A DNA stretch of 64,000 nt from a virus (Duplodnaviria > Caudoviricetes): IMG/VR virus record IMGVR_UViG_3300037047_000246, one strand, 5' to 3'. Below, piece by piece: positions 4,285-26,598 of this stretch. The notes below the pieces were generated by a model. The model was not told the DNA's origin. It made no database searches and was given only the letters and a program-made list of their open reading frames with translations. A program made the translations under genes and the position numbers. Numbering within the stretch: the stretch's first letter is position 1; every line of letters starts with the position of its first letter.

Positions 4285-7158
4285 ATGCAACTTGCCCAAG
4301 CTGACGATCGAGTCACCGTACAACGCCCTTGGTTTAGCGGTTTCGGGTTTCACCTGGTTCAGAACGTCGACCAATTTCGCAAGCTGGTGGATATTTGTAT
4401 ACAGAGGGGATTGTGTTCGCTCGACGTCGAGTCTACAGGGCTCGACAACAGGGTGTACCAGGACGCTTATTTCGAAGACGGCAAAAAGACCCGCCACGGC
4501 ATCAGAACCATCGATCGAATCGTTGGTCTATGCATGTCATTCGACGGGCAGAACGGCTACTACATCCCACTGACGCATGAGCCAGAAGACTCAGGCAACC
4601 TACCTTGGGATCCGGTGTGCGACGAGTTGACGCGGTTGGTGAACAACTGCAAAATCATATTCCACGGCGGCAAATATGACAAAGAGATGCTGCTGCCGTT
4701 GGTGAATCGCGAGTACTGGAAGGCAGACGAGCACGAAGACACGATGCTTCTGGCCAAGGTGATAAACCCGCTCAAAGGTATGCCGGCCGGCTTGAAACCG
4801 CTGACCAAGATTCACTTCGGCATAGAGATGATCGAGCTCGACGACCTGTTCACGCACGAGAAAAAAGAGCAGCTTCGCAAGGAGAAAAAGCGGTACAACT
4901 TCGCGCTGCTGCACCCTAAAGAAGGGCTTGAGTACGGCTGCTCGGACGGCATATTCACTTACAAGTTGTGGTTTGCCCTGAAGGACAAACTCCAAGGGCA
5001 CGACATGATGATGTACAACTTGGAGAAGTCCTTTTGCAACGTCGTGCAGAAGATGGAGCGCAACCGGGTCCACATTGATGTGAGTCGCGTAGAGCAGCTG
5101 TCAGCAGAGTGCGACGCTATGCTCAAGCTAACTGGCGATGCGGTCAGAGACATAATCGAGTCGCGCACTGGAAAGACGGGCAGATGGAGGACCCTGAACG
5201 TGGGTTCGCCGAAGCAGCTGTCCATGGCTCTGCTGACGGACCCGGAGGGTCTGTGTCTGAAACCTACCAAATTCATGTTGGGGGAGGATGATCAGTATGC
5301 GGACGCGCTGTCCGGCGATAGCGAAGAGAACGAAGAGGAGGACGACTCCGGCGTGCAGAAGCAGTACACGCTAAAGGACGAGGCCCTCAAGTCCATGGAC
5401 GCCGCATACGGCAAGGCTTACGGCGTTGTGTTGCACGGTGAAACAGACAAAGCCGGCAAACCGAAGACGCAAAGCCTGTTCTACCTGGTCATTGAATTCA
5501 GACACTATCAGAAAATGAAGGGGTCGTTCACCGACAAGCTGATGCAGTCTCACGACAAGTATGGGGACGTGAGGCCGGTGTTCAATCAGATGGGGACCGA
5601 CACCACGCGCCTTTCGTCGAAAGCCGGCAAAATCGCAGACGGCTTCTCCGGCATCAACTTCCAGGGCATCCCGAGAGACTCTGACGACGACAAGCCTGAA
5701 CTGTTCAAGCAAATCCGCACTTGCATCATCCCGAGGCCCGGCAAATTCTTGGTGAAACTGGACTTCGCTGGAGAGGAACTGAGGGTTGTGTGCAACCTGT
5801 CAGGCGACCCTATTTGGACCAGGTCTTTCTTGCACGAAGACGGGGACGTGCACAGCATCACCTCTCGCACCCTGTTCGGCAAAAGCGAAGTGTCTAAAGA
5901 CGAGCGCAACCGGGGCAAACGCTGCAACTTTGCTTTCATCTACGGAGGAGGAGCTGGCGCAATCTCCAGGAACGTCGGCTGCTCAGTTGAAGATGGCTCC
6001 AGGCACATGTCCAATCTCCGGGCCGCAGTCCCGGTGCTGATGGGGTATGTGGATCACCAGAAAGAGTTTGCGCGCAAGCACAAATGCGTATACACGGCTT
6101 TTGGGCGGCGCATCCCGATACCCACCATAGACTCCCCGATTCGCGCCATACGGGCGAAGGCGGAGCGATGCGCCATCAACTACACAATCCAGGCCACGTC
6201 GGCCGACATACTGAAGTTCGCGATGTGTCTTGTCGACAAGAAGATCCGAGAAATGGGTTGGGACGACAAGATCAAATACGTGATGACGGTGCATGATGAA
6301 GTTGTGTACGAAATCGAGCCGGAGCTTTTGCAAGAAGCGGTGCGAAAGCTCGACGAGTGGATGACGTACCCGTGGAAGCTTCCGAAGGCCCACGGCAGGG
6401 ACTGGGAAGTGCCGCTTCTGACTGAGCCCGGAATCGATGTCAACTGGAAGGCGCGCTTCGACTATTTCAAGATGGTGGACGGCATTCCGGCCGATCCCAA
6501 GGACGTGGTAGACGGGGTCTTCAAAGGCAAGTTGAAGAAAGACGAATACTACGACAACGGGCGAATGTTCCAGAAGATCCCAGAGTTTCTTGCTGAGTGG
6601 ATCAAGAGAGAGGATGGGGGAGAGGCGCAGCACCAAAGCAACCCGGCGACGCCAAAGCTCGTGGCGCCACAAGCTTTGGCGTCGCCTGCGGAGCAGATTG
6701 CCAAAGAGTCCGCGGAAGCCCGCTCCGACAAGGCTAACGACCCGGGAAAAAGCCGCGCCAGCGCGGCCGACCTCAGCCTCGACATAGGAGCGCCTTCGCT
6801 CAACATCAACGTGTCTCTGGACGAGCCTGACTCAAAACCTGAACCTGCAAAGCTGCACGAGCCAGCCGCCGAGACTCGCGACCAAACGGCCGCCGACTTG
6901 GCCCCGTCTCCGCAGCCGGACTACCATGTCGAGCCGGAGCCAAAAACCAGGGGCAACGGCGAAGTGTTCAGGTGGGTCATAGGATCTGTGCCGTCGGAAT
7001 CGGCTATGCGCAGACTGCACGCAGCGTGCATTCTGGCTGAAGGCGAGATTCCCATCCGCATAGTCAACCGCAGAGGCGACATTCTTGTTGGGGAATCTGA
7101 AAACATCCTAGTCGATCCTAGCAAATTCAAAATTGTGGTTGAGCTTTTCGGAATCTGA
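4285..7158 (+). CDS. polA: Family A DNA polymerase with 3'-5' exonuclease and about 200-aa C-terminal extension
   Basis: ExoI LDVESTG; motif A LDFAGEELRV; motif B RNRGKRCNFAFIYG (Phe at the E. coli 762-equivalent position); motif C TVHDEVV. Confidence 0.95.
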   Translation: MQLAQADDRVTVQRPWFSGFGFHLVQNVDQFRKLVDICIQRGLCSLDVESTGLDNRVYQDAYFEDGKKTRHGIRTIDRIVGLCMSFDGQNGYYIPLTHEPEDSGNLPWDPVCDELTRLVNNCKIIFHGGKYDKEMLLPLVNREYWKADEHEDTMLLAKVINPLKGMPAGLKPLTKIHFGIEMIELDDLFTHEKKEQLRKEKKRYNFALLHPKEGLEYGCSDGIFTYKLWFALKDKLQGHDMMMYNLEKSFCNVVQKMERNRVHIDVSRVEQLSAECDAMLKLTGDAVRDIIESRTGKTGRWRTLNVGSPKQLSMALLTDPEGLCLKPTKFMLGEDDQYADALSGDSEENEEEDDSGVQKQYTLKDEALKSMDAAYGKAYGVVLHGETDKAGKPKTQSLFYLVIEFRHYQKMKGSFTDKLMQSHDKYGDVRPVFNQMGTDTTRLSSKAGKIADGFSGINFQGIPRDSDDDKPELFKQIRTCIIPRPGKFLVKLDFAGEELRVVCNLSGDPIWTRSFLHEDGDVHSITSRTLFGKSEVSKDERNRGKRCNFAFIYGGGAGAISRNVGCSVEDGSRHMSNLRAAVPVLMGYVDHQKEFARKHKCVYTAFGRRIPIPTIDSPIRAIRAKAERCAINYTIQATSADILKFAMCLVDKKIREMGWDDKIKYVMTVHDEVVYEIEPELLQEAVRKLDEWMTYPWKLPKAHGRDWEVPLLTEPGIDVNWKARFDYFKMVDGIPADPKDVVDGVFKGKLKKDEYYDNGRMFQKIPEFLAEWIKREDGGEAQHQSNPATPKLVAPQALASPAEQIAKESAEARSDKANDPGKSRASAADLSLDIGAPSLNINVSLDEPDSKPEPAKLHEPAAETRDQTAADLAPSPQPDYHVEPEPKTRGNGEVFRWVIGSVPSESAMRRLHAACILAEGEIPIRIVNRRGDILVGESENILVDPSKFKIVVELFGI

Positions 7159-13340: not shown

Positions 13341-13733
13341 ATGGCAGATCCGGAAGATTGCGACGTCACCAGGCAGCACGGTCCAGACGACCCGGTCAAT
13401 CCGAATCCTGGTCAGTGCACGCTTTGCACTGGAGACACGAGGGACAACATATTTTTCACGCCCCGTGCGCCAGGTTTTGCCGGCAGGTGCATCTTGGACG
13501 AGATGACGTACGAGCAGGTAGAGCTGGTGCTGCTTCGCAGTCCAAGAGCTAAAGGAGACTTGCTGCGCATCACGTCAAACCCGACCTTGGTCACGATGGC
13601 CAGAAACTCAAGGCTTGTCGAAAATCCGGCTGACGACAACGAAAATATGCGCAAACGGCTCCATGCCAACAGCTTGCCGTTCTACACCCTGTTTAAGGGA
13701 AATCAGGACGGGACGCCCACAGGGAGGCGTTAA
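13341..13733 (+). CDS. hypothetical protein
   Basis: ATG at 13341 with GAGG SD; 130 aa. Confidence 0.7.
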   Translation: MADPEDCDVTRQHGPDDPVNPNPGQCTLCTGDTRDNIFFTPRAPGFAGRCILDEMTYEQVELVLLRSPRAKGDLLRITSNPTLVTMARNSRLVENPADDNENMRKRLHANSLPFYTLFKGNQDGTPTGRR

Positions 13734-15304
13734 CCTGCTCCGGGACGGCACCAGACCCACCGCTTCTTGCCGAGGTCCCAAATTTTGGCGTATCCCTGGC
13801 TTTGCCGCAGCAGGCTCTCGGTTTGGGGATACCCATTTGGCTTTCTAAGACCCGATTTGTGGTGTCTGCGTCTGCCTTTGACCCAGTAGTAATCTGGCTT
13901 GACATCCCCGTCGAACACAAAGCCGAGCTTGCCGTACACCCCACCGTTGAACAACCTGTTGTCGGAGAACGAAACAATGGACTGAGGGCAGTGTTGGCGC
14001 ACAAACACTCGCAGCAGCTTTGACCAGATCCCGTGCGCTCGGTATGCCGGGTCGGAAGTCATGCGCACGAGCTCCCAGTCGTGCTTCGACTGGCGGCTTG
14101 GACGCTTGAAGGACACACATGCGATCAGCTTGCCGCCGTACGATGCGCCAACATTGACGCTGGCGCGAGCCCCGCCCAAATAATGGAAGCTGTCGTGAAG
14201 AGCGTCTGCCGACCGGCAGTCTACGAAGCCGACATCGCACGCTGACGGTCTAAGCGACTCTGGCTTGTGCGTGCCAAGCCTGTTCGCTATGATGTCGCAC
14301 ATTTTGGCTTTACTGAAAGCCCACTCGTCCTCGTATATTGCCAATAGCTCGAATCCGTGGTCTATCGAATTCAGGTACTTGGCCGAGTCCCGGCGCCGTG
14401 ACTCAGGGCTTGAATGCCAGCGAAGACCGTGGTGCTCTATGAGCAATCGGCAGTCCGGCACGCCAACATCATAAGCGAGTTTGCCTACTTTGTACTCCAT
14501 GATAGGGTGCGCTCCCAGCGTCCGCACAGCATCCAGTATTTGCTGTTGCGCGTCGCTGACGTGACCGGCTGCGCATCCGCATGTTAACGAACGGCCAATT
14601 CTTATGTCGTCCCATCTAGGATGGTATTCTGCTCCGCAGGCTGCACACGTGGCTCGCACTGGTTCGCCAGTGTTGACGATGCTTTTCGCGATAGCAACCC
14701 CGCCAGGCGGCATTTGCGTCATGCAAATCGGAGTGCGCAACGCACGCAAGTCGTCCTTGTGCGCCTCATACCAAGCAGCAACTGAGGTGCGGCACCTCCC
14801 GCAGCTTTTCGTATTGAGCCTTGTGACACGTATGATCGGCAAGTCAACTTCGCGGCCGCACGTGCAGACCCAGGTTACGAGCTTCGCTGAGGATGGGTGC
14901 GCATCTACCGGCCGCTTCATCCGCAATCTGCCGAACTTCTTGCCCGCCCACTCCTCGGCAGGCAAAACGTTGCATTTGCCACAAGTTGTCGTAAGGCCCT
15001 TGCTCACCGTGACAATTGCGGCCTGTGTTGTTTTGCCGCAATCGCAAAGCCAAATCGCCCGCTTGTTGGAGCCAGTGCTGGTCGGCTGCGGATGCAACAT
15101 TCGCAGCCGACCATACTTGGTGCTTGCCCAGTGCTCGGCTGGCAGAACATTGCACTTGCCGCACGATTTCCTGTGGCCGCGGGCAAAATCAATCCACTTG
15201 ACCGGTATGCCTGTGTTGCCGCATACGCAGTCAAACAGGACAATCTTTCCTGAGCCCGCTGATGGCAGGATCTGGCCTGGTGTTGGTGTCAGTCGCGTCT
15301 GCAT
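13730..15304 (-). mobile_element. Free-standing Hef-like homing endonuclease gene (Cys-repeat N-terminus + PD-(D/E)xK-like nuclease + GNAT/Mom-like C-terminus), copy 1
   Basis: Three CxCG...SCGxC repeats, YDVGVP...LIEHHGLRWHS nuclease motif, SFSDNRLFNG..Y.KLGF...KPDYYW and KIWDLGKKRW; paralogous to 22632-24410. Confidence 0.75.
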
Positions 15305-15998
15305 TATTTCTGACCAGTGGGCCGCCGTAATATCCAGCCACTGCCCGATCCACCACGATATGTGCTTTTTCCGTGACCAATTTGGTGAGGTCCATATCCA
15401 GCACGTATGCAAGAATAAAAGAATAAATAACGACATCGGGCAACTCAGACACTACGGCTCCCAATAACTGCTGATCCGCGTTGCCTCCGTTGCGGAGCGC
15501 TTTAACCATTTTATTCAAACATTCTCCAGCTTCAGCTGACACAGCTGCCGCATAATAGAATGCCGGGTTCTGACCATAGGCTTCCTTCTCACCCATCTGC
15601 TTGATGCGGCACAGCACCTTGTGCGATTCGACAATGGCCGAGAAGATGTCGTCCATAGCCGCTTCACGCTCCCCAACCAGTTCCTTGATTCGTTGGTCGA
15701 TGGTGCTGAATACGCCGTTGACTTCGAAAGTGGCGCTTCTGGCTTCGTCTCGCAGCCGTCGCAGTTCGTCGATTCTGGCGTCAATCTCGGACCGGGTTCG
15801 CTTGGGGATGAAGTCAGTGTGGGTTACCGGGCTGGCTTCTTGCAACACCAAAGACTTGCCAAATACGCCGACGCATTCCCCCGGTTCTTGCGGCTCTGGC
15901 TGCAGCCATACAATTCCAGCGTCGTCGGAGCAGTCGTGAACCGAATGCAGACGGCCGCGAAACATCAAAGTTTGGCCAACCCTAATTGTGTCAAGCAT
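15231..15998 (-). CDS. MazG-like NTP pyrophosphohydrolase domain protein
   Basis: AEAGECLNKMVK...SELPDVVIY (ExxE...ExxD) after an N-terminal coiled coil. Confidence 0.75.
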   Translation of the reverse strand: MLDTIRVGQTLMFRGRLHSVHDCSDDAGIVWLQPEPQEPGECVGVFGKSLVLQEASPVTHTDFIPKRTRSEIDARIDELRRLRDEARSATFEVNGVFSTIDQRIKELVGEREAAMDDIFSAIVESHKVLCRIKQMGEKEAYGQNPAFYYAAAVSAEAGECLNKMVKALRNGGNADQQLLGAVVSELPDVVIYSFILAYVLDMDLTKLVTEKAHIVVDRAVAGYYGGPLVRNNADATDTNTRPDPAISGLRKDCPV

Positions 15999-20538: not shown

Positions 20539-21876
20539 TCAAACCATGTCAGCCGTGATTTCAGATACTCCTGCGGCCACGCCGTCTTCTTCAACCTCAC
20601 CATCTTCGTTTACGGACACGCCGTCTGCATTCACAACTTCGCCGCCATCGTCCGACTCGTAGTCTTCGTCGTCCCCTTCGCGCTTAGTGACTGCGTCCTC
20701 GGCCAGCTGCGCTAGCTGTTCGTCGTCCAGCACCTTAAAGCCTTGCAAGATGTTCTCGACGCATCCGTTGACCAACTCGTCGGTCAACTTGAGCTTGGTC
20801 ATTTCCATCCGGAAACGCTCAATTCCGACCACCTCGACCTTTTGGCCGCCGGCAGACGAGTACGAGTAGGTCTCTTGCCTCTTGGCGTTCTTGCCGATCT
20901 TGATGAGCTTATATGCCTGCGCAACGTTCAACATGGTGCGCAGCTCGTCGATGCCGACGCCGTACCGGATTGTGATGAGCCCAGCATGACCCTGGGTCGC
21001 ATCGATCTTGTTTTTGATCATCTTGACTTCGATGTCGGTCGAAATCTGCACATCTTCCATGCTGCGCGTCAGCGGGTTCCACAACTTGGCTTTAGCTGAC
21101 ATGCGCGGCTTCAGCATCATGCGCACGCTTGCCCAGAATTTCAGGGCGTTGCCGCCGGTCGTGGACTTGAGGGCTTCCTCGCTCTTGGCAAATTTGGACA
21201 CGCCAATCTTGTCTCTGGTCTGATTCAGAAACATGCAGTGCGTGCCCGTCCTGGCAATGATGCTCTGGAGTTTGGGCATCCACTGAGACATCAGGCGAGG
21301 AATTTCCGCCACGCCCATCTTCTCGTCTTCATTGGACGTGTCTCGCTTGATTTCGCGACTGGACACCAGACCAGCCACGGAGTCTATGACGATGAAGTCC
21401 ACGCCCTGCAAACAAGCGTTCATCACCAGGGCCTCAGTCTCCTCGAACGTGTGCGGCTGGACCCGGATGGCGCGGCCCTCACCGCCAACTTCTGGCGGTC
21501 GGAAATCTACGCCTAACTTCATGGCATAGTGGTCCTGCACTGCGCATTCGAGATCGACGTACAAGCCGCAGCCGTCTTCTCCTCCCCGACGGAGAGCATG
21601 TGCCATGGCTGTCATGGCGATGGTGGACTTGCCTGAGCTCTCGCGACCAAATACCTCAGAAATCTTGCCTCGGGGCCATCCAGGGCACACAAAGGTGCCG
21701 TCCGGCAATCTGGTTCCGCCAATCAGCAAGTTCAGGATGGTGCTGCCGGTCGGCGTGTAGTCCTGCTGAAACTTCGGCGTGACGAACACCCCCCTGATAT
21801 TTGTCCGCTTTTCGATGGACTCGGTGAATTTCTTGAGCTTGGGATGAAGTTTGACTGCGGCTGCCGATTTCGCCAT
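20539..21876 (-). CDS. recA: RecA-family recombinase with acidic tail
   Basis: GWPRGKISEVFGRESSGKST, FIVIDSVAGL, FLNQTRDKIG, TTGGNALKFWASVR, KNK. Confidence 0.95.
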   Translation of the reverse strand: MAKSAAAVKLHPKLKKFTESIEKRTNIRGVFVTPKFQQDYTPTGSTILNLLIGGTRLPDGTFVCPGWPRGKISEVFGRESSGKSTIAMTAMAHALRRGGEDGCGLYVDLECAVQDHYAMKLGVDFRPPEVGGEGRAIRVQPHTFEETEALVMNACLQGVDFIVIDSVAGLVSSREIKRDTSNEDEKMGVAEIPRLMSQWMPKLQSIIARTGTHCMFLNQTRDKIGVSKFAKSEEALKSTTGGNALKFWASVRMMLKPRMSAKAKLWNPLTRSMEDVQISTDIEVKMIKNKIDATQGHAGLITIRYGVGIDELRTMLNVAQAYKLIKIGKNAKRQETYSYSSAGGQKVEVVGIERFRMEMTKLKLTDELVNGCVENILQGFKVLDDEQLAQLAEDAVTKREGDDEDYESDDGGEVVNADGVSVNEDGEVEEDGVAAGVSEITADMV

Positions 21877-21905
21877 AATGCCTCCAGGTGTTATAATACA
21901 CTCGT

Positions 21906-22628
21906 TCAGCCTTCAAGCGTCTTGGCCTGGTCGGCCTCCAGCCACCTGACGAGCATCGAGTTGATGTCGGATTTGGTCGGCAAATCCACCGACCCCTCGG
22001 GAACCCGCGAAAACTCGAAGAACCTGGAGTTTTCGCGGAACACGTGAGCCGTCTTGCGCAGCGACAGAGACCCGTCCGAGCGCTTGCGCTTCTTGGTTCG
22101 AGTCAGAAATGCTGATCGCTCATTGTCGGACAGGTCTTCGGGAGCCAGCATGCCTGCTCGGACTTCCATGAATCGGGCGGCGAACCGGGCGATGCAGTAC
22201 GCGTCCGCCTCGTTATTGTCTATGGTGCCGGACGACATGGTGTCGAGCTGCACGAATCGCTGCATATCCGACTTGGCGAATGTAGACTTGCCCACCATGT
22301 ATTTGACTGTGGTCGGATCGAACAGCACGCAGTCGCGGCGCCGAGCGAATATGGCCTCCAGCGAAAACATCATCAGCCCGAAGTGATTCTCGCTGAAGGG
22401 GCCACCCCCGAACGCCGGCGATTCTATCCCGACCGCCCGGACCTCGTAGCGGCGCAGCAGATCTGCCACCAGCGACCGGAAATGCATGAATCGGGCGACC
22501 GGCACGGTGAGCGGCAAAGTGCCCTCATGGCCTGACGCGACCCGGCGCAAGCGCGGGTCTTTCGCCTGGCTGTCGTATACGCACCATCCGTAGGCTTTTA
22601 GTGATGGGTCAAGACCGAGTGTTAGCAT
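21906..22628 (-). CDS. ruvC: RuvC-like Holliday junction resolvase
   Basis: LGLDPSLKAYG (D7), VGIESP (E), NNEADAYCIA (DA); located next to recA. Confidence 0.88.
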   Translation of the reverse strand: MLTLGLDPSLKAYGWCVYDSQAKDPRLRRVASGHEGTLPLTVPVARFMHFRSLVADLLRRYEVRAVGIESPAFGGGPFSENHFGLMMFSLEAIFARRRDCVLFDPTTVKYMVGKSTFAKSDMQRFVQLDTMSSGTIDNNEADAYCIARFAARFMEVRAGMLAPEDLSDNERSAFLTRTKKRKRSDGSLSLRKTAHVFRENSRFFEFSRVPEGSVDLPTKSDINSMLVRWLEADQAKTLEG

Positions 22629-22631
22629 GTA

Positions 22632-24410
22632 ATGTCTGAGGTGACCATGATGATGACACTAGTCCGCGGGGTTCGATATGGCAGTCTAGAATACATCGGT
22701 GACACAGTCACCATCGGCGAGCGTAGCGCCAAAAAACTAACATTCGCGTGCGACTGCGGGCAACGCACGGAGGTAATGCTGCGCAATGTCGTGCTTGGCA
22801 AAAGCAAATCGTGCGGAAGATGCACAGCGCGGCTCATCAAAACGGGAGACGTGTTTGGTGATCTTACATGGGTGGGTTCCGATGCCTACGTCCAACCGGA
22901 AAGCCAAAAGCAACATCCTTTCCAGTGCAAGTGCGGTCGAGTTAAAAGCATGCGCTTGTTCACGGTCCTGAGGGGGCGGGCCAAAACCTGCGGATTATGC
23001 AACTCGATGGTATTGGCCACAGGCGACAGAGTCCACAGCTTCGAGTATGTCGGGCCTACGGTTGAAATACATGCCGGGTCCAACAAGAGACTCTCGTTCC
23101 AATGCAGCTGCGGGCACACGACGTTCCGTCGCTTTAAGAGCATACGAGCCGAGTCCACATGTGGGCACTGTCGAGACGTGTCGTTGAGTCCAGGCGATCC
23201 ATACAAAAACTTCGTGTATGCAGGCACGCACCCCGTGATCGTCGGGATGTGTAGCAAGAAGAAACTCTTGTTTCAATGCAAATGTGGCAATACCAAGGCA
23301 ATCAGTGTCAATCTAATCACCAGTGGTGATGTTGTGTCGTGCACTGAATGCTATGCGAGGGTCCGCACTGCGTACGCACAGCATCTGGACATGCTTCGCT
23401 CGATAAAATGCCCGATTGACCAGGATGGATTCCCCGAGGGCCTCCCAAGACCTTTGGAAGCCATCAGGAACGTCACAGACTCGTTCGCAATGCCCTGCCC
23501 CGCGTGCGGTCGGATTTACCGACCAAGGCTCAACGACCTGAAACGTCTGAAGTGTTTGACATGCGGATGCACAAATAACGTAGTATCAGGTCAGAATCTA
23601 CAACTGGCGGAGTTCATCCGCGGTCTCGGCTTCACACCCATACAAGAACATCCGATTGGCGGGAAGGTTTTTGACCTATATGTGCCAGAGGCTAGCCTTC
23701 TGGTGGAACTTCAAGGCATCCGGTGGCACTCGAAGCCAGGCAGCGCCGAACGCGAAGGTGCCAAGTATGAGATTGCCAAAGCGTCCGGGAGCACATCGCT
23801 CTGGATATATGAAGACGAATGGAAGCACAGGCGCCGAGCCATCGAGTCGATTGTTGCGCATAAACTTGGCATAAAACCTGATTTCAGGTTGAGACCAAAG
23901 AGCTGCGACATAAGACTGGTGACCAGTAGTGAAGCCAATGCCCTGTACGACGAGTTCCATTACATAGGCCGGTGTGCGTCTCCGTTTAACATCGCTGCTT
24001 TCTATGATGGTCAGATGGTGGCCGCCATGTCATTCAGGAAGCCGTCCAGACAGAGCAAGCATAGCTATGAGATGTCTCGAATGGTCATGAGGCCCAGGTT
24101 CAGAATACACGGGATATGGTCCAAGTTTATGGCCGAATTCCGTGCAACCCACCCGCACTCAAGCATCGTGGCCTACTCGGACAACCGGCTATTTGACGGC
24201 CACACGTACCGAGCAATAGGGTTTACTTATGATGGTGACGTGAAACGCGATTATTATTGGGCGCGCGGCGGTCATCGCTATCACAAGTCAGCGTTGCGCA
24301 AATCCGCTGGCTGTGTCGTGACTGAGAACGCCCTGAGGACCTCGCAGGGGTTTGCGAAGATATGGGACCTAGGCAAAAAGAGGTGGATTCTCGCGTCAAC
24401 CCCAGCGTAA
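22632..24410 (+). mobile_element. Free-standing Hef-like homing endonuclease gene, copy 2, inserted antisense into the ruvC 5' end
   Basis: Four CxCG...CGxC repeats, FDLYVP...LVELQGIRWHS, AYSDNRLFDG..Y..IGF...KRDYYW, KIWDLGKKRW. Start may be 22632 or 22647. Confidence 0.78.
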
Positions 24411-24515
24411 GCATTTTGCCAAACTTACGGCGATGAGCCAGCTAAATAAATGCACACAGGCCACGATAGCCACGATGGCCAGAAAGCGCCACCCGCGGCC
24501 CTCGAGACTCGCCAT
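24396..24515 (-). CDS. possible 39-aa membrane peptide
   Basis: MASLEGRGWRFLAIVAIVACVHLFSWLIAVSLAKCLRWG; below the ORF-track length cutoff. Confidence 0.3.
   Translation of the reverse strand: MASLEGRGWRFLAIVAIVACVHLFSWLIAVSLAKCLRWG
24397..24414 (-). pseudogene. Orphan ruvC 5' remnant (MLTLGL)
   Basis: ATG CTT ACG CTG GGG TTG encodes the same six residues as the ruvC start; CGTAAG box lies 9 nt upstream. Confidence 0.8.
24424..24429 (-). promoter_or_regulatory. YGTA(A/T)N promoter box, original ruvC start
   Basis: CGTAAG, 9 nt before ATG 24414. Confidence 0.55.
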
Positions 24516-24762
24516 CAACCCCAGGGCTGTCGCACGCCAGCAGCAGCGCAATAAGAATGGATGCCAACTCCCTCCTCGAGAGGGGATGACCGCTAGGCGT
24601 TCATGTCTCGTGACGCTGGCTCACCCGCTTGGCAAACTCCACCATCGTGAGCTTTGTTAGCTCAGTATAGCGGCGTCCAGATGCAGTGTGAGTTTGGCAG
24701 TAGGTGGTCCAAGCGGGAGGCTTGGTAGATACGAATCGAACTACCAAGTGAACCGATATTCG

Positions 24763-25656
24763 CTAGGTGAGAAGATCTGAATACGACGACACCAGCTTAG
24801 GCGCTTCAGCCTGGGCGCCAGACGAAATCTGAGCAGAACCGCCGCCACCGCCGCCCAACTGCTGCAGCTTCTCCATCAGCTTGTCTCGCGTCATTTCGAA
24901 GCCGAGGTTCTGCTGCACGTACTTGTAAGCGCGCAGCCCCTGATCCAGCACCCAAGCGCGGGTTTCAGGGTCGCAGTCTTCTCGAGCCCAGAACGCGGTG
25001 GAGGCCGCTTCGATTTGCTGCTTCTGGAACTTGGGATCGCCGTCCAGCGTCACGCGCAGGTCGATGACCTCCCGCTTGTCGTTGCGCGCGTCGGTGTACG
25101 CTGCCTCGAGCTTCTTGAACTTCTTGGCCGACATGGCCCACACGTAGAAATTCGTGTATTTGCGCATCTTGAGCAAATCGGCGTCGACCTGGCCCTTGTC
25201 GTCAATCGGATAGGTCATGATGATGCAGCCGACCTTCTGATCCGCATCGCCAAACTTGTTGCAGCACATTTCCGGCTGTACCATCGTCTGGCCCTCGTAC
25301 TTGCTCAGGCAACGGATGGTGCCGACCCCTTCAGAATAGTGGGTATACGCCATCGAGAACTTGGGCCTGGCGATGTCCAGGCGCTCGCCTTCGGTCAGCT
25401 TGTCCACGGCCTTGCCGAGCTTCTCTGCCAGCTTGGCGTCGATCTTTGCATTGTACTGAGACTTCTCTTCGTCAGTCAGCGGCCGCCCGGCTTCAAGCGC
25501 CTTCTTGGCGAGAATGCCGTCGTGGTGGCGCTTAAAAGACACGATGGTGACGCGGTGCTTCTCGCCGGGGCGGGTCTGCTTGAAAGTTTCGACCCCAACC
25601 ACCTTGATGACCTTGGCATCGTCGAATCCGAATTCCATCACACTTGAGTCACTCAT
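24763..25656 (-). CDS. probable single-stranded DNA-binding protein (gp32-like)
   Basis: Position next to ruvC/recA, Cys cluster (IRCL...MCC...GCI), aromatic YVW, Gly-rich linker and short acidic tail; AGAGGT SD. Confidence 0.55.
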   Translation of the reverse strand: MSDSSVMEFGFDDAKVIKVVGVETFKQTRPGEKHRVTIVSFKRHHDGILAKKALEAGRPLTDEEKSQYNAKIDAKLAEKLGKAVDKLTEGERLDIARPKFSMAYTHYSEGVGTIRCLSKYEGQTMVQPEMCCNKFGDADQKVGCIIMTYPIDDKGQVDADLLKMRKYTNFYVWAMSAKKFKKLEAAYTDARNDKREVIDLRVTLDGDPKFQKQQIEAASTAFWAREDCDPETRAWVLDQGLRAYKYVQQNLGFEMTRDKLMEKLQQLGGGGGGSAQISSGAQAEAPKLVSSYSDLLT

Positions 25657-25740
25657 TGTCTCTACCTCTTTGTTGAACGCTTTGGACTTTTGGCCATTTG
25701 GCCGTTGATGCAGACACTTTACAATTGAAAGGCGCCGCTG

Positions 25741-26598
25741 CTAAACATCGTCAAACAGCATAGGCGCCACTGGCTCGACCACGTCGTCGTCGTAAGCCGG
25801 TTTGCGCACTGGCTCCTGCTGGGCGGAGTCACGTGGCCCAATAACAGCCCGATCTTTAATCTGGTCCTGAGGCGGCTTTGAGCTGAAGAAGTCAGCGATC
25901 TGCTGCGCGTGCATCTCGTCCATTGGCTCCGGCATGTCCGCCGGCCTTTTTTCCGGGTCGAGCAAGTCCTTCGGGTCTATTGCGCCCGGGGACACCGGCG
26001 GCGGCATGCCGTCAGGCACCGATCTGTCCTGTCTGGCCTGCGGCTTGCTATATCCATGCTGACCGGCCATTTGCGCATCAGCGTCGTCTCTGACTAGCTG
26101 GCGCTGAGACTTTACGTCCGCGTTAGTTCTGATCAGGTCTTGGTGCTTCAGTTTGACAATCTTGTACGTTTCTGCGGCGTCGAGCAGTTCCAAACGCAAG
26201 GCGGACAGGTTGTCATGCTCCGGTCTGAGCAGCATGGTGGCCAGCGCCTTGCGGTCTTCTATCGATGGCTGCTTGCGCACTTCCGGGTCGTCGGCCAACT
26301 TCTGAGCAAGCTTCAGTTCAAGGTCCAGCTCCATCTGGCGGGTTTCCACCGTGAGCTCCTTGACCTGCTTGCCTATGGTCTGCATGTAGTATATGACCCT
26401 ATTGAGGTATTTGCGACACAGAGCGACGCGACTGTTCAAATACCTGACCCCCAGGTCCGGCAAAGTCGGATCTTCAGCCAATTCGACTTCGAATGCCGCA
26501 ATCTCTTCAAGAATAACCGAGAACTGGTCCGCCGTATACTTCATGGGTATGCGCATCAGTGGTGGCAGAGGTTGAAACGGCCGCAGGGCTGCAGTCAC
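25741..26598 (-). CDS. coiled-coil protein, possible UvsY-like recombination mediator
   Basis: Helical coiled-coil N-terminal two thirds next to ssb; family call is inference only. Confidence 0.4.
   Translation of the reverse strand: MTAALRPFQPLPPLMRIPMKYTADQFSVILEEIAAFEVELAEDPTLPDLGVRYLNSRVALCRKYLNRVIYYMQTIGKQVKELTVETRQMELDLELKLAQKLADDPEVRKQPSIEDRKALATMLLRPEHDNLSALRLELLDAAETYKIVKLKHQDLIRTNADVKSQRQLVRDDADAQMAGQHGYSKPQARQDRSVPDGMPPPVSPGAIDPKDLLDPEKRPADMPEPMDEMHAQQIADFFSSKPPQDQIKDRAVIGPRDSAQQEPVRKPAYDDDVVEPVAPMLFDDV

Follow-up and report, generated by a model that had tools for sequence, protein, structure and literature searches.

Homing endonuclease genes (HEGs) can occupy one end of a host gene without any splicing. 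In fungal mitochondria, mobile open reading frames (mORFs) make gene hybrids in this way, as documented for atp6, atp9, cox2, and nad3 of Glomus sp., atp9 of Rhizopus, and cox2 of Mortierella (PMC3630166), and the same source cites an atp6 mORF hybrid in Allomyces macrogynus (Paquin et al. 1994; PMC3630166). In Torulaspora and Lachancea yeasts, the WHO elements home into the 3' end of FBA1 (Coughlan et al. 2020, PMC7282813; preprint 10.64898/2026.08.13.744650). Free-standing phage endonucleases that spread with co-conversion of their flanks are likewise classic, and the "intronless homing" of the T4-type genes is represented by SegF, SegG, MobE, and the Hef of phage U5 (PMC2988022). Here we describe a locus in a stretch of 64,000 nucleotides (nt) (the window) from IMG/VR virus record IMGVR_UViG_3300037047_000246, in which a Hef-like HEG lies antisense to a ruvC-like gene, between the working start of that gene and an orphaned second copy of its first six codons. 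We interpret the HEG, the short spacer beside it, and the foreign first 10 to 13 codons of ruvC as a homing cassette at the ruvC 5' end, a reading to which we assign a probability of about three in four.

The source record is a 362,524-bp virus genome with direct terminal repeats, belonging to a groundwater jumbo phage. The full stretch is present in four groundwater and coal metagenome runs, with small parts in three more, and contigs of three further public runs bridge both junctions of the arrangement, which is therefore no assembly artifact. The ruvC gene belongs to a minus-strand block of recombination genes that runs p285, up297, ruvC, recA, and an SbcC-like gene; this order, with p285-up297-ruvC-recA as its conserved synteny, recurs in >40 related contigs. 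The features that carry the argument are as follows.

21906-22628, minus strand: intact ruvC-like Holliday junction resolvase gene (240 aa), a continuous 240-codon open reading frame (ORF)
22590-22628, minus strand: foreign, endonuclease-linked 5' segment of ruvC, about codons 1 to 13, its inner boundary approximate
22629-22652: divergent spacer from the ruvC ATG to the probable HEG start, with a Shine-Dalgarno-like GAGGTGA at 22638-22644 (plus strand)
22632-24410, plus strand: Hef-like free-standing HEG, 592 codons as listed, probably 585 to 587
24393-24410, plus strand: tail of the HEG, ASTPA and TAA, mostly antisense of the orphan; the core ends with KKRWIL at 24392
24397-24414, minus strand: orphan ruvC start, ATG CTT ACG CTG GGG TTG (MLTLGL), ending after codon 6
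24396-24551, minus strand: 51-codon ORF of uncertain gene status that reads through the orphan in the +1 frame and ends in SWLIAVSLAKCLRWG before its stop

The original prediction, made from the letters of the window, had pointed to a second MLTLGL start at 24414-24397 on the minus strand, to synonymous differences at all five codons after its ATG, and to an endonuclease gene whose end is borrowed from the antisense of that copy. We found each of these as described. The working start reads ATG CTA ACA CTC GGT CTT GAC (MLTLGLD), the orphan encodes the same six residues with 12 of 18 nt identical between the copies, and the last five sense codons and the TAA of the HEG overlap the orphan. The 1.78-kb HEG, antisense to ruvC, fills the space between the two. 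In a six-frame translation of the whole 362,524-bp genome, MLTLGL was found only at these two sites, the expected chance count being 0.023 per genome. Among 332 crude genes of the genome, ruvC alone has its N-terminal hexapeptide recurring upstream on the same strand at a distance of ≤3 kb.

To the two starts we could assign different origins by means of relatives that carry no HEG. The closest of these are L021 (RuvC 80%, RecA 84% identity) and L063 (RuvC 80%, up297 87%), in both of which a small membrane-protein gene is followed by ruvC. Their ruvC genes begin ATG CTG ACG CTG GGG CTC GAC in L021 and ATG CTG ACG CTA GGC TTG GAC in L063. The expectation that element-free relatives should carry an orphan-type start contiguous with the rest of the gene was thus borne out in both, as the orphan matches each of them at 15 of 18 nt, against 13 of 18 (L021) and 12 of 18 (L063) for the working start. 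When compared with shuffled sequences, the orphan region aligned to the L021 start with p ~0.003 and to the window's own ruvC start with p 0.31. Codon by codon, the window and L021 are identical at 1 of 11 compared positions within the first 13 codons of ruvC versus 83 of 165 (50%) thereafter (Fisher p 0.01). The same first 13 codons are identical at 9 of 12 positions in L061 and at 5 of 11 in L058, both of which bear an HEG, and over its first 18 nt the working start agrees with that of L061 at 17. These comparisons of starts and codons indicate that the orphan behaves as the resident start of the gene and the working start as an import linked to the HEG. Codons ending in A or T had also been singled out at the working start. 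This is real, the GC content of third codon positions (GC3) being 0.2 in the first 10 codons of ruvC and 0.79 in the rest, a value equally low in only 8 of the 332 genes; the further claim that this makes the segment resemble the element did not hold, since the GC3 of the endonuclease gene is 0.62.

We found the distribution of the HEG to be patchy. In seven other lineages, its orthologues (44 to 61% identity) face ruvC head to head from the opposite strand, and the gene is not present in the close relatives L021, L063, L001, L009, and others. An HEG-free genome of the P0024 type comes from the ENA sample (ERZ1426824) that also yielded the P0001 contig. The occupied loci are listed below together with a decayed one.

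L024, L025, L047, and L064: HEG-bearing, head to head with ruvC
L057/L061/L062 (carrying P0002) and L058 (carrying P0003): HEG-bearing, head to head with ruvC
Contigs carrying P0001 and P0005: HEG-bearing, head to head with ruvC
L065:3035-3491 and L066:1358-1809: decayed HEG copy, reduced to residues 1-124 and 564-589

The window phage and L061 share 85% identity in RuvC and 89% in RecA and 61% in the endonuclease, while for P0001 and L058 the corresponding values are 68% in RuvC and 75% in the endonuclease. These distances disagree, which points to horizontal spread of the endonuclease gene and not to its co-divergence with the backbone. The proposal that this is a mobile nuclease gene therefore agrees with its patchy presence at one site, out of step with the surrounding genes. 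From the decayed copy of L065 and L066, the nuclease domain and most of the GNAT domain have been deleted, and a TGG codon has become TGA; such a copy would fit the late part of the homing life cycle. A search for further loci with the endonuclease alone recovered none, and one with the alignment of its orthologues recovered two distant loci at 25% identity.

A second orphan occurs in another of the occupied lineages. In L061, beyond the far end of the HEG, the sequence ATG CTC ACG CTC GGA CTC G again encodes MLTLGL and is broken at nt 19; the same orphan is found in L057, which is 97.6% identical to L061. The break point within ruvC is common to both orphans and lies at nt 18/19. The surroundings of the two are different: the L061 orphan stands 78 nt past the HEG stop, behind a hairpin, and is overlapped by the end of a GIY-YIG/NUMOD3 endonuclease gene, whereas the window orphan overlaps the HEG stop itself. 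Of the 18 nt, 5 are not the same in the window orphan and the L061 orphan, always with a synonymous effect, which fits two separate captures from working genes. Taken together, the same break on the target side, the different upstream context and junction on the cassette side, and the divergent endonucleases argue for two separate invasions.

We propose the following course of events for the homing cassette. The endonuclease of a co-infecting, diverged relative would have cut an unoccupied ruvC at or next to codons 6 to 8, within the conserved GLDPS motif, to which the catalytic Asp belongs. Repair on the ruvC side would then have proceeded by homologous copying from the donor, first of its ruvC start and then of the HEG, so that foreign codons 1 to about 10 or 13 became continuous, in frame, with the resident body of ruvC. 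The upstream end, which would have found little or no homology, could have been joined at the break by microhomology or illegitimately, and the resident first six codons would have been left 1.8 kb upstream as the orphan. As the new start is synonymously different, it would no longer be a target, and no splicing would be needed. We infer the cut site, the resistance of the new start, and the repair route in this scheme, the cutting and the resistance from the architecture. The original prediction had spoken of a recoded 5' end; we prefer to see in it the start that a diverged donor phage had in its own ruvC, brought in together with the HEG, and not a spelling made for the purpose.

Several observations weigh against the homing cassette. 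The orphan signal consists of 18 nt only. The DNA upstream of it shows no significant similarity to the DNA that precedes ruvC in L021 (p 0.44), and an HEG-less allele of this phage was not found, the relatives recovered in the metagenome scan being at ≤80% identity. The unusual composition of the working start is also less telling than it might seem, since gene starts of this genome tend to a lower GC3 anyway, and first codons ending in A or T are seen in the HEG-free relatives of lower GC content L001 and L009. No orphan is present in L058 or in L065/L066, HEG-bearing lineages whose far ends are readable; these may represent a simple intergenic donor state, or decay. A scan of 22300-24900 for sigma-70 promoters and terminators stayed at background and yielded no promoter for ruvC. 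Finally, the 51-codon ORF has a short likeness to the C-terminus of the small membrane-protein gene of L021 and L063; its end, CLRWG and a stop, is loosely like that of the small gene of L021, ILRWR and a stop, which makes another homology for the orphan bases conceivable. In addition, contigs of the four runs contain no joint that skips the insert, a result that amounts to absence of evidence only, and the orphan region was not found when viral contigs were scanned for its exact pattern. A hand alignment had suggested a decayed orphan in L058 as well; it failed the shuffle test and was discarded.

The likeness of those two ORF ends leads to the view that the HEG is an ordinary intergenic gene, that the 18 nt are the C-terminal codons of a small ORF, and that MLTLGL arose by chance. 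The site would suit such an origin, because the space between up297 and ruvC is a hot spot: L001 has a sigma-70 gene there, L006 and L061 each have a GIY-YIG gene, and L005 has other cargo. Nor is there an orphan in L058 and L065, and the small ORF ends in WLIAVSLAKCLRWG before its stop as compared with WLIAVFLVHLILRWR before the stop in L021. Yet the hexapeptide is expected 0.023 times per genome by chance, and far less often at this exact spot, and the same feature recurs in L061. At the DNA level, the orphan is 83% identical to the ruvC starts of the relatives versus ~56% (by hand count) when the bases are aligned instead with the end of the small gene of L021. Moreover, the small protein of L063 found no match in the window's slot by tblastn, and no relatives in the protein database. 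We therefore regard coincidence as quite improbable. Still further from the data is an explanation in which the 1.8-kb insert behaves like an intron or intein, so that synthesis of RuvC would begin at the orphan ATG and depend on RNA or protein splicing. Homing endonucleases do often reside in introns and inteins, and the orphan retains its ATG, but the HEG is on the strand opposite ruvC, the complete N-terminus of ruvC would make splicing redundant, and no group I or group II intron model of Rfam matches 21500-25000 at E ≤ 1. Given the missing intron match, the antisense insert, and the complete ruvC, we judge splicing unlikely, in line with the original prediction, and we give the spliced alternative practically no weight.

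The remaining alternative retains the architecture and changes its history: a single ancient insertion would have been inherited vertically by the window phage and L061, with the orphan kept as a part of the element, either as a short left homology arm for later homing or through the constraint of overlapping frames. The two orphans would then not be independent markers of a break point. The window phage and L061, both HEG-bearing, are the closest pair in RuvC (85%) and RecA (89%), their working starts (17 of 18 nt) and spacers are homologous, and both orphans overlap other ORFs; in the passages of Barth et al. that concern them, gene fragments in endonuclease islands are proposed to be recombination substrates (PMC10055350). 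Against a shared insertion, the endonuclease is just 61% identical in this closest backbone pair and 75% identical between more distant backbones. The upstream contexts differ, with a small ORF in the window and a GIY-YIG gene in L061, as does the distance from the orphan to the HEG stop, an overlap in one and 78 nt in the other. Further, in the ruvC frame each of the five nucleotide differences that separate the orphans is synonymous, and overlapping frames would not impose such a pattern. On balance, we consider one ancient insertion unlikely and favor the homing cassette acquired in two separate invasions.

The ruvC product matches PHROG 159 ("RuvC-like Holliday junction resolvase") with E 2e-14; a Pfam search with the window protein gave no match, and several of its 265 homologues carry PF02075. 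Codon 7 encodes a catalytic-type Asp (MLTLGLDPS), and the GLDPS motif with this Asp is kept in nearly all of ~35 relatives. We take Asp7 of the window protein to correspond to the catalytic Asp7 of Escherichia coli RuvC.

The predicted product of the gene between the two starts is a Hef-like homing endonuclease. It matches PHROG 559 (E 1.4e-61) and PHROG 3339 (E 5e-43), annotated "HNH endonuclease" and "homing endonuclease," and a tblastn search with residues 310 to 592 recovered 373 phage records with Hef73 or Hef-like genes at 25 to 29% identity. Among these matches are Hef73 of Campylobacter phage NCTC12673 (E 4e-28) and genes of Tenacibaculum phages labeled "Hef-like homing endonuclease"; kinship to the Hef of phage U5 rests on these Hef and Hef-like annotations of the matched genes. 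Matches of the HEG and its orthologues to the Pfam families Mom and MTES_1575 were below the cutoffs, and a PDB sequence search gave nothing useful. An AlphaFold model built with an alignment of 13 homologues (mean predicted local confidence, pLDDT, 85.9) has four Zn-ribbon repeats and two further domains.

~23590-23865, plus strand: I-Bth0305I/Vsr-like PD-(D/E)xK nuclease domain (Foldseek match to the catalytic domain of the I-Bth0305I homing endonuclease, 3r3p, template modeling score [TM] 0.76, root mean square deviation 2.4)
23907-24392 (approximate), plus strand: Mom/GNAT-like C-terminal domain (Foldseek match to Mu Mom, 8bv8, E 3.6e-6, and to GNAT folds)

Residues D341, E352, H359, and E387-D388-E389 are invariant in the 13 homologues. 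The Mom-like GNAT domain is well modeled and conserved in all of the homologues; in the model, it places an acyltransferase-type fold in a homing endonuclease, for which DNA binding or a self-protecting DNA modification are candidate roles.

At the 5' end of the HEG, ATG codons occur at 22632, 22647, 22650, and 22653, and the orthologues begin at a residue aligned with M8 of the listed product; with the GAGGTGA upstream, this places the HEG start probably at 22647-22653. The gap of 3 bp to the ruvC ATG in the original prediction accordingly gives way to a probable one of 18 to 24 bp. Homologous spacers (GTAAT...GGAGA) are found in L057/L061 and L058. At the 3' end, the alignment of orthologues is conserved up to KKRW[VIF]L, and the tails beyond it vary. 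With the resident start displaced, we infer that ruvC would now be expressed from a promoter and ribosome-binding site inside the cassette. A CGTAAG upstream of the orphan had been put forward as a promoter box; upstream of genes this hexamer shows no enrichment (3 occurrences against 2.25 expected), and we set it aside. A groundwater metatranscriptome contig spans 24609-24800, with the 3' end of up297 and the hairpin but not the cassette, too little to speak of transcription.

Matches to the HEG occur at 11 places in the genome besides the ruvC site, one of them in the window at 13730-15436 on the minus strand. Of the 12 match rows, eight have 36 to 42% identity to the copy at ruvC and the other four are weaker; one ORF accounts for two of the rows. 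The flanks of the other 10 paralogues share no peptide of at least 6 residues, and in translated local alignment they were no better than cross-locus controls.

The slot that holds the cassette is delimited by up297 and ruvC, and the elements on its up297 side are these.

24442-24567, minus strand: 41-codon ORF between up297 and the orphan, with a strong putative GAGGAGGGAG ribosome-binding site
24721-24748: putative hairpin 3' of up297, read from the sequence
24763-25656, minus strand: up297, the upstream neighbor, 297 aa, of no family; its homologue lies 55 to 110 bp upstream of ruvC in most relatives

The N-terminus of the 41-codon ORF, MASILIALLLAC, resembles a lipoprotein signal with a lipobox. 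A blastn search of 21000-26000 against the phage collection gave no match. In other relatives, the slot serves as a general hot spot. A GIY-YIG/NUMOD3 gene occupies it at L006:2525-3574 and L061:2-877, and L058:5760-6030 may hold a frameshifted C-terminal remnant of such a gene, as judged by eye; with GIY-YIG and Hef-like genes in one slot, it hosts two unrelated endonuclease families. In L001, a complete gene of the sigma-70 family (Pfam regions 1.2, 2, and 4; 4527-5861, minus strand) stands there beside a 105-codon ORF, in place of an endonuclease. The small membrane-protein gene of L021 contains, at positions 200-300, a 16-nt unit repeated about four times in tandem, and these repeats shift the frame of the gene relative to the L063 homologue.

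If the homing cassette is read correctly, a selfish nuclease gene can occupy an important phage gene without intron or intein, by means of a replacement start. To our knowledge, the specificity of the Hef-like enzyme family is almost unstudied, and the same break nucleotide in two lineages yields a concrete prediction of a cut site at the catalytic-Asp codon of ruvC. For annotation, the foreign first 10 to 13 codons of such genes can mislead phylogenies, and small ORFs beside endonuclease genes may be relics of gene starts. As a tentative generalization, phages might carry a whole class of splicing-independent homing cassettes at the 5' ends of conserved genes, each made up of an endonuclease, start signals, and a resistant, re-spelled start. 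Were this true, orphaned resident starts would record the exact break point, the target sites of uncharacterized endonuclease families could be read from genomes (here ruvC nt 18/19), and the orphan might act as a minimal homology arm for further spread.

Among phage systems, the T4-type free-standing genes resemble the ruvC cassette in that the endonuclease gene adjoins a conserved target gene, the flanks are co-converted, and the targets encode critical residues, but those genes lie between genes and not in a coding start. A displaced, duplicated gene start was not found described for the SegF, SegG, MobE, and Hef cases (PMC2988022), and a limited, purely lexical literature search found no phage case of a replaced gene start described, only hints. 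In Aeromonas phage Aeh1, mobE divides nrdA, which is a gene in pieces (Friedrich et al. 2007, as referenced in PMC2988022). As far as that citation goes, a free-standing endonuclease gene there too lies inside a conserved phage gene, unspliced and with function kept; two expressed halves assemble, whereas ruvC of the window remains in one piece by virtue of the cassette's new start. Barth et al. (2023, PMC10055350) mention briefly that endonuclease islands of ICP1 and other phages hold pieces of essential genes, small ORFs by the endonuclease genes being fragments of neighboring essential genes as here; start replacement, synonymous re-spelling, and a common break point go unmentioned in the passages of that paper on these islands. 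The route proposed for the orphan has a precedent in the one-sided, illegitimate repair of double-strand breaks when the td intron of T4 homes (Parker, Belisle and Belfort 1999, per PMC2988022), where homology is likewise one-sided and the other junction falls at the break or at a microhomology. As summarized there, td is a laboratory intron system, and that account describes no natural footprint in an essential gene.

The closest parallels are eukaryotic. In the WHO elements, as at ruvC, one end of an essential gene is replaced at each integration without splicing; they differ in being nuclear, with endonucleases derived from inteins, and in replacing the 3' end, and their allele-specific cutting is established by experiment, whereas cutting by the Hef-like enzyme is proposed from the architecture. 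The mORFs come nearest in their footprint: a foreign end of the host gene moves together with the endonuclease gene and is fused in frame with no splicing, and the displaced native segment persists as an orphan that resembles element-free relatives more than the working copy does, with differences that are largely synonymous. Their site is the 3' end of the gene, which they replace from a downstream position and in its orientation; they encode LAGLIDADG or GIY-YIG enzymes and reside in organelles, unlike the phage cassette, which replaces the 5' end by means of an antisense Hef-like gene and must supply the start signals of ruvC. The design known from fungal mitochondria and yeast FBA1 thereby reaches jumbo phages, and with them 5' ends and enzymes of the Hef-like family: the window cassette works like the mORF and WHO elements and is a mirror-image variant of them, in which the 5' end is exchanged and the HEG lies upstream and antisense.

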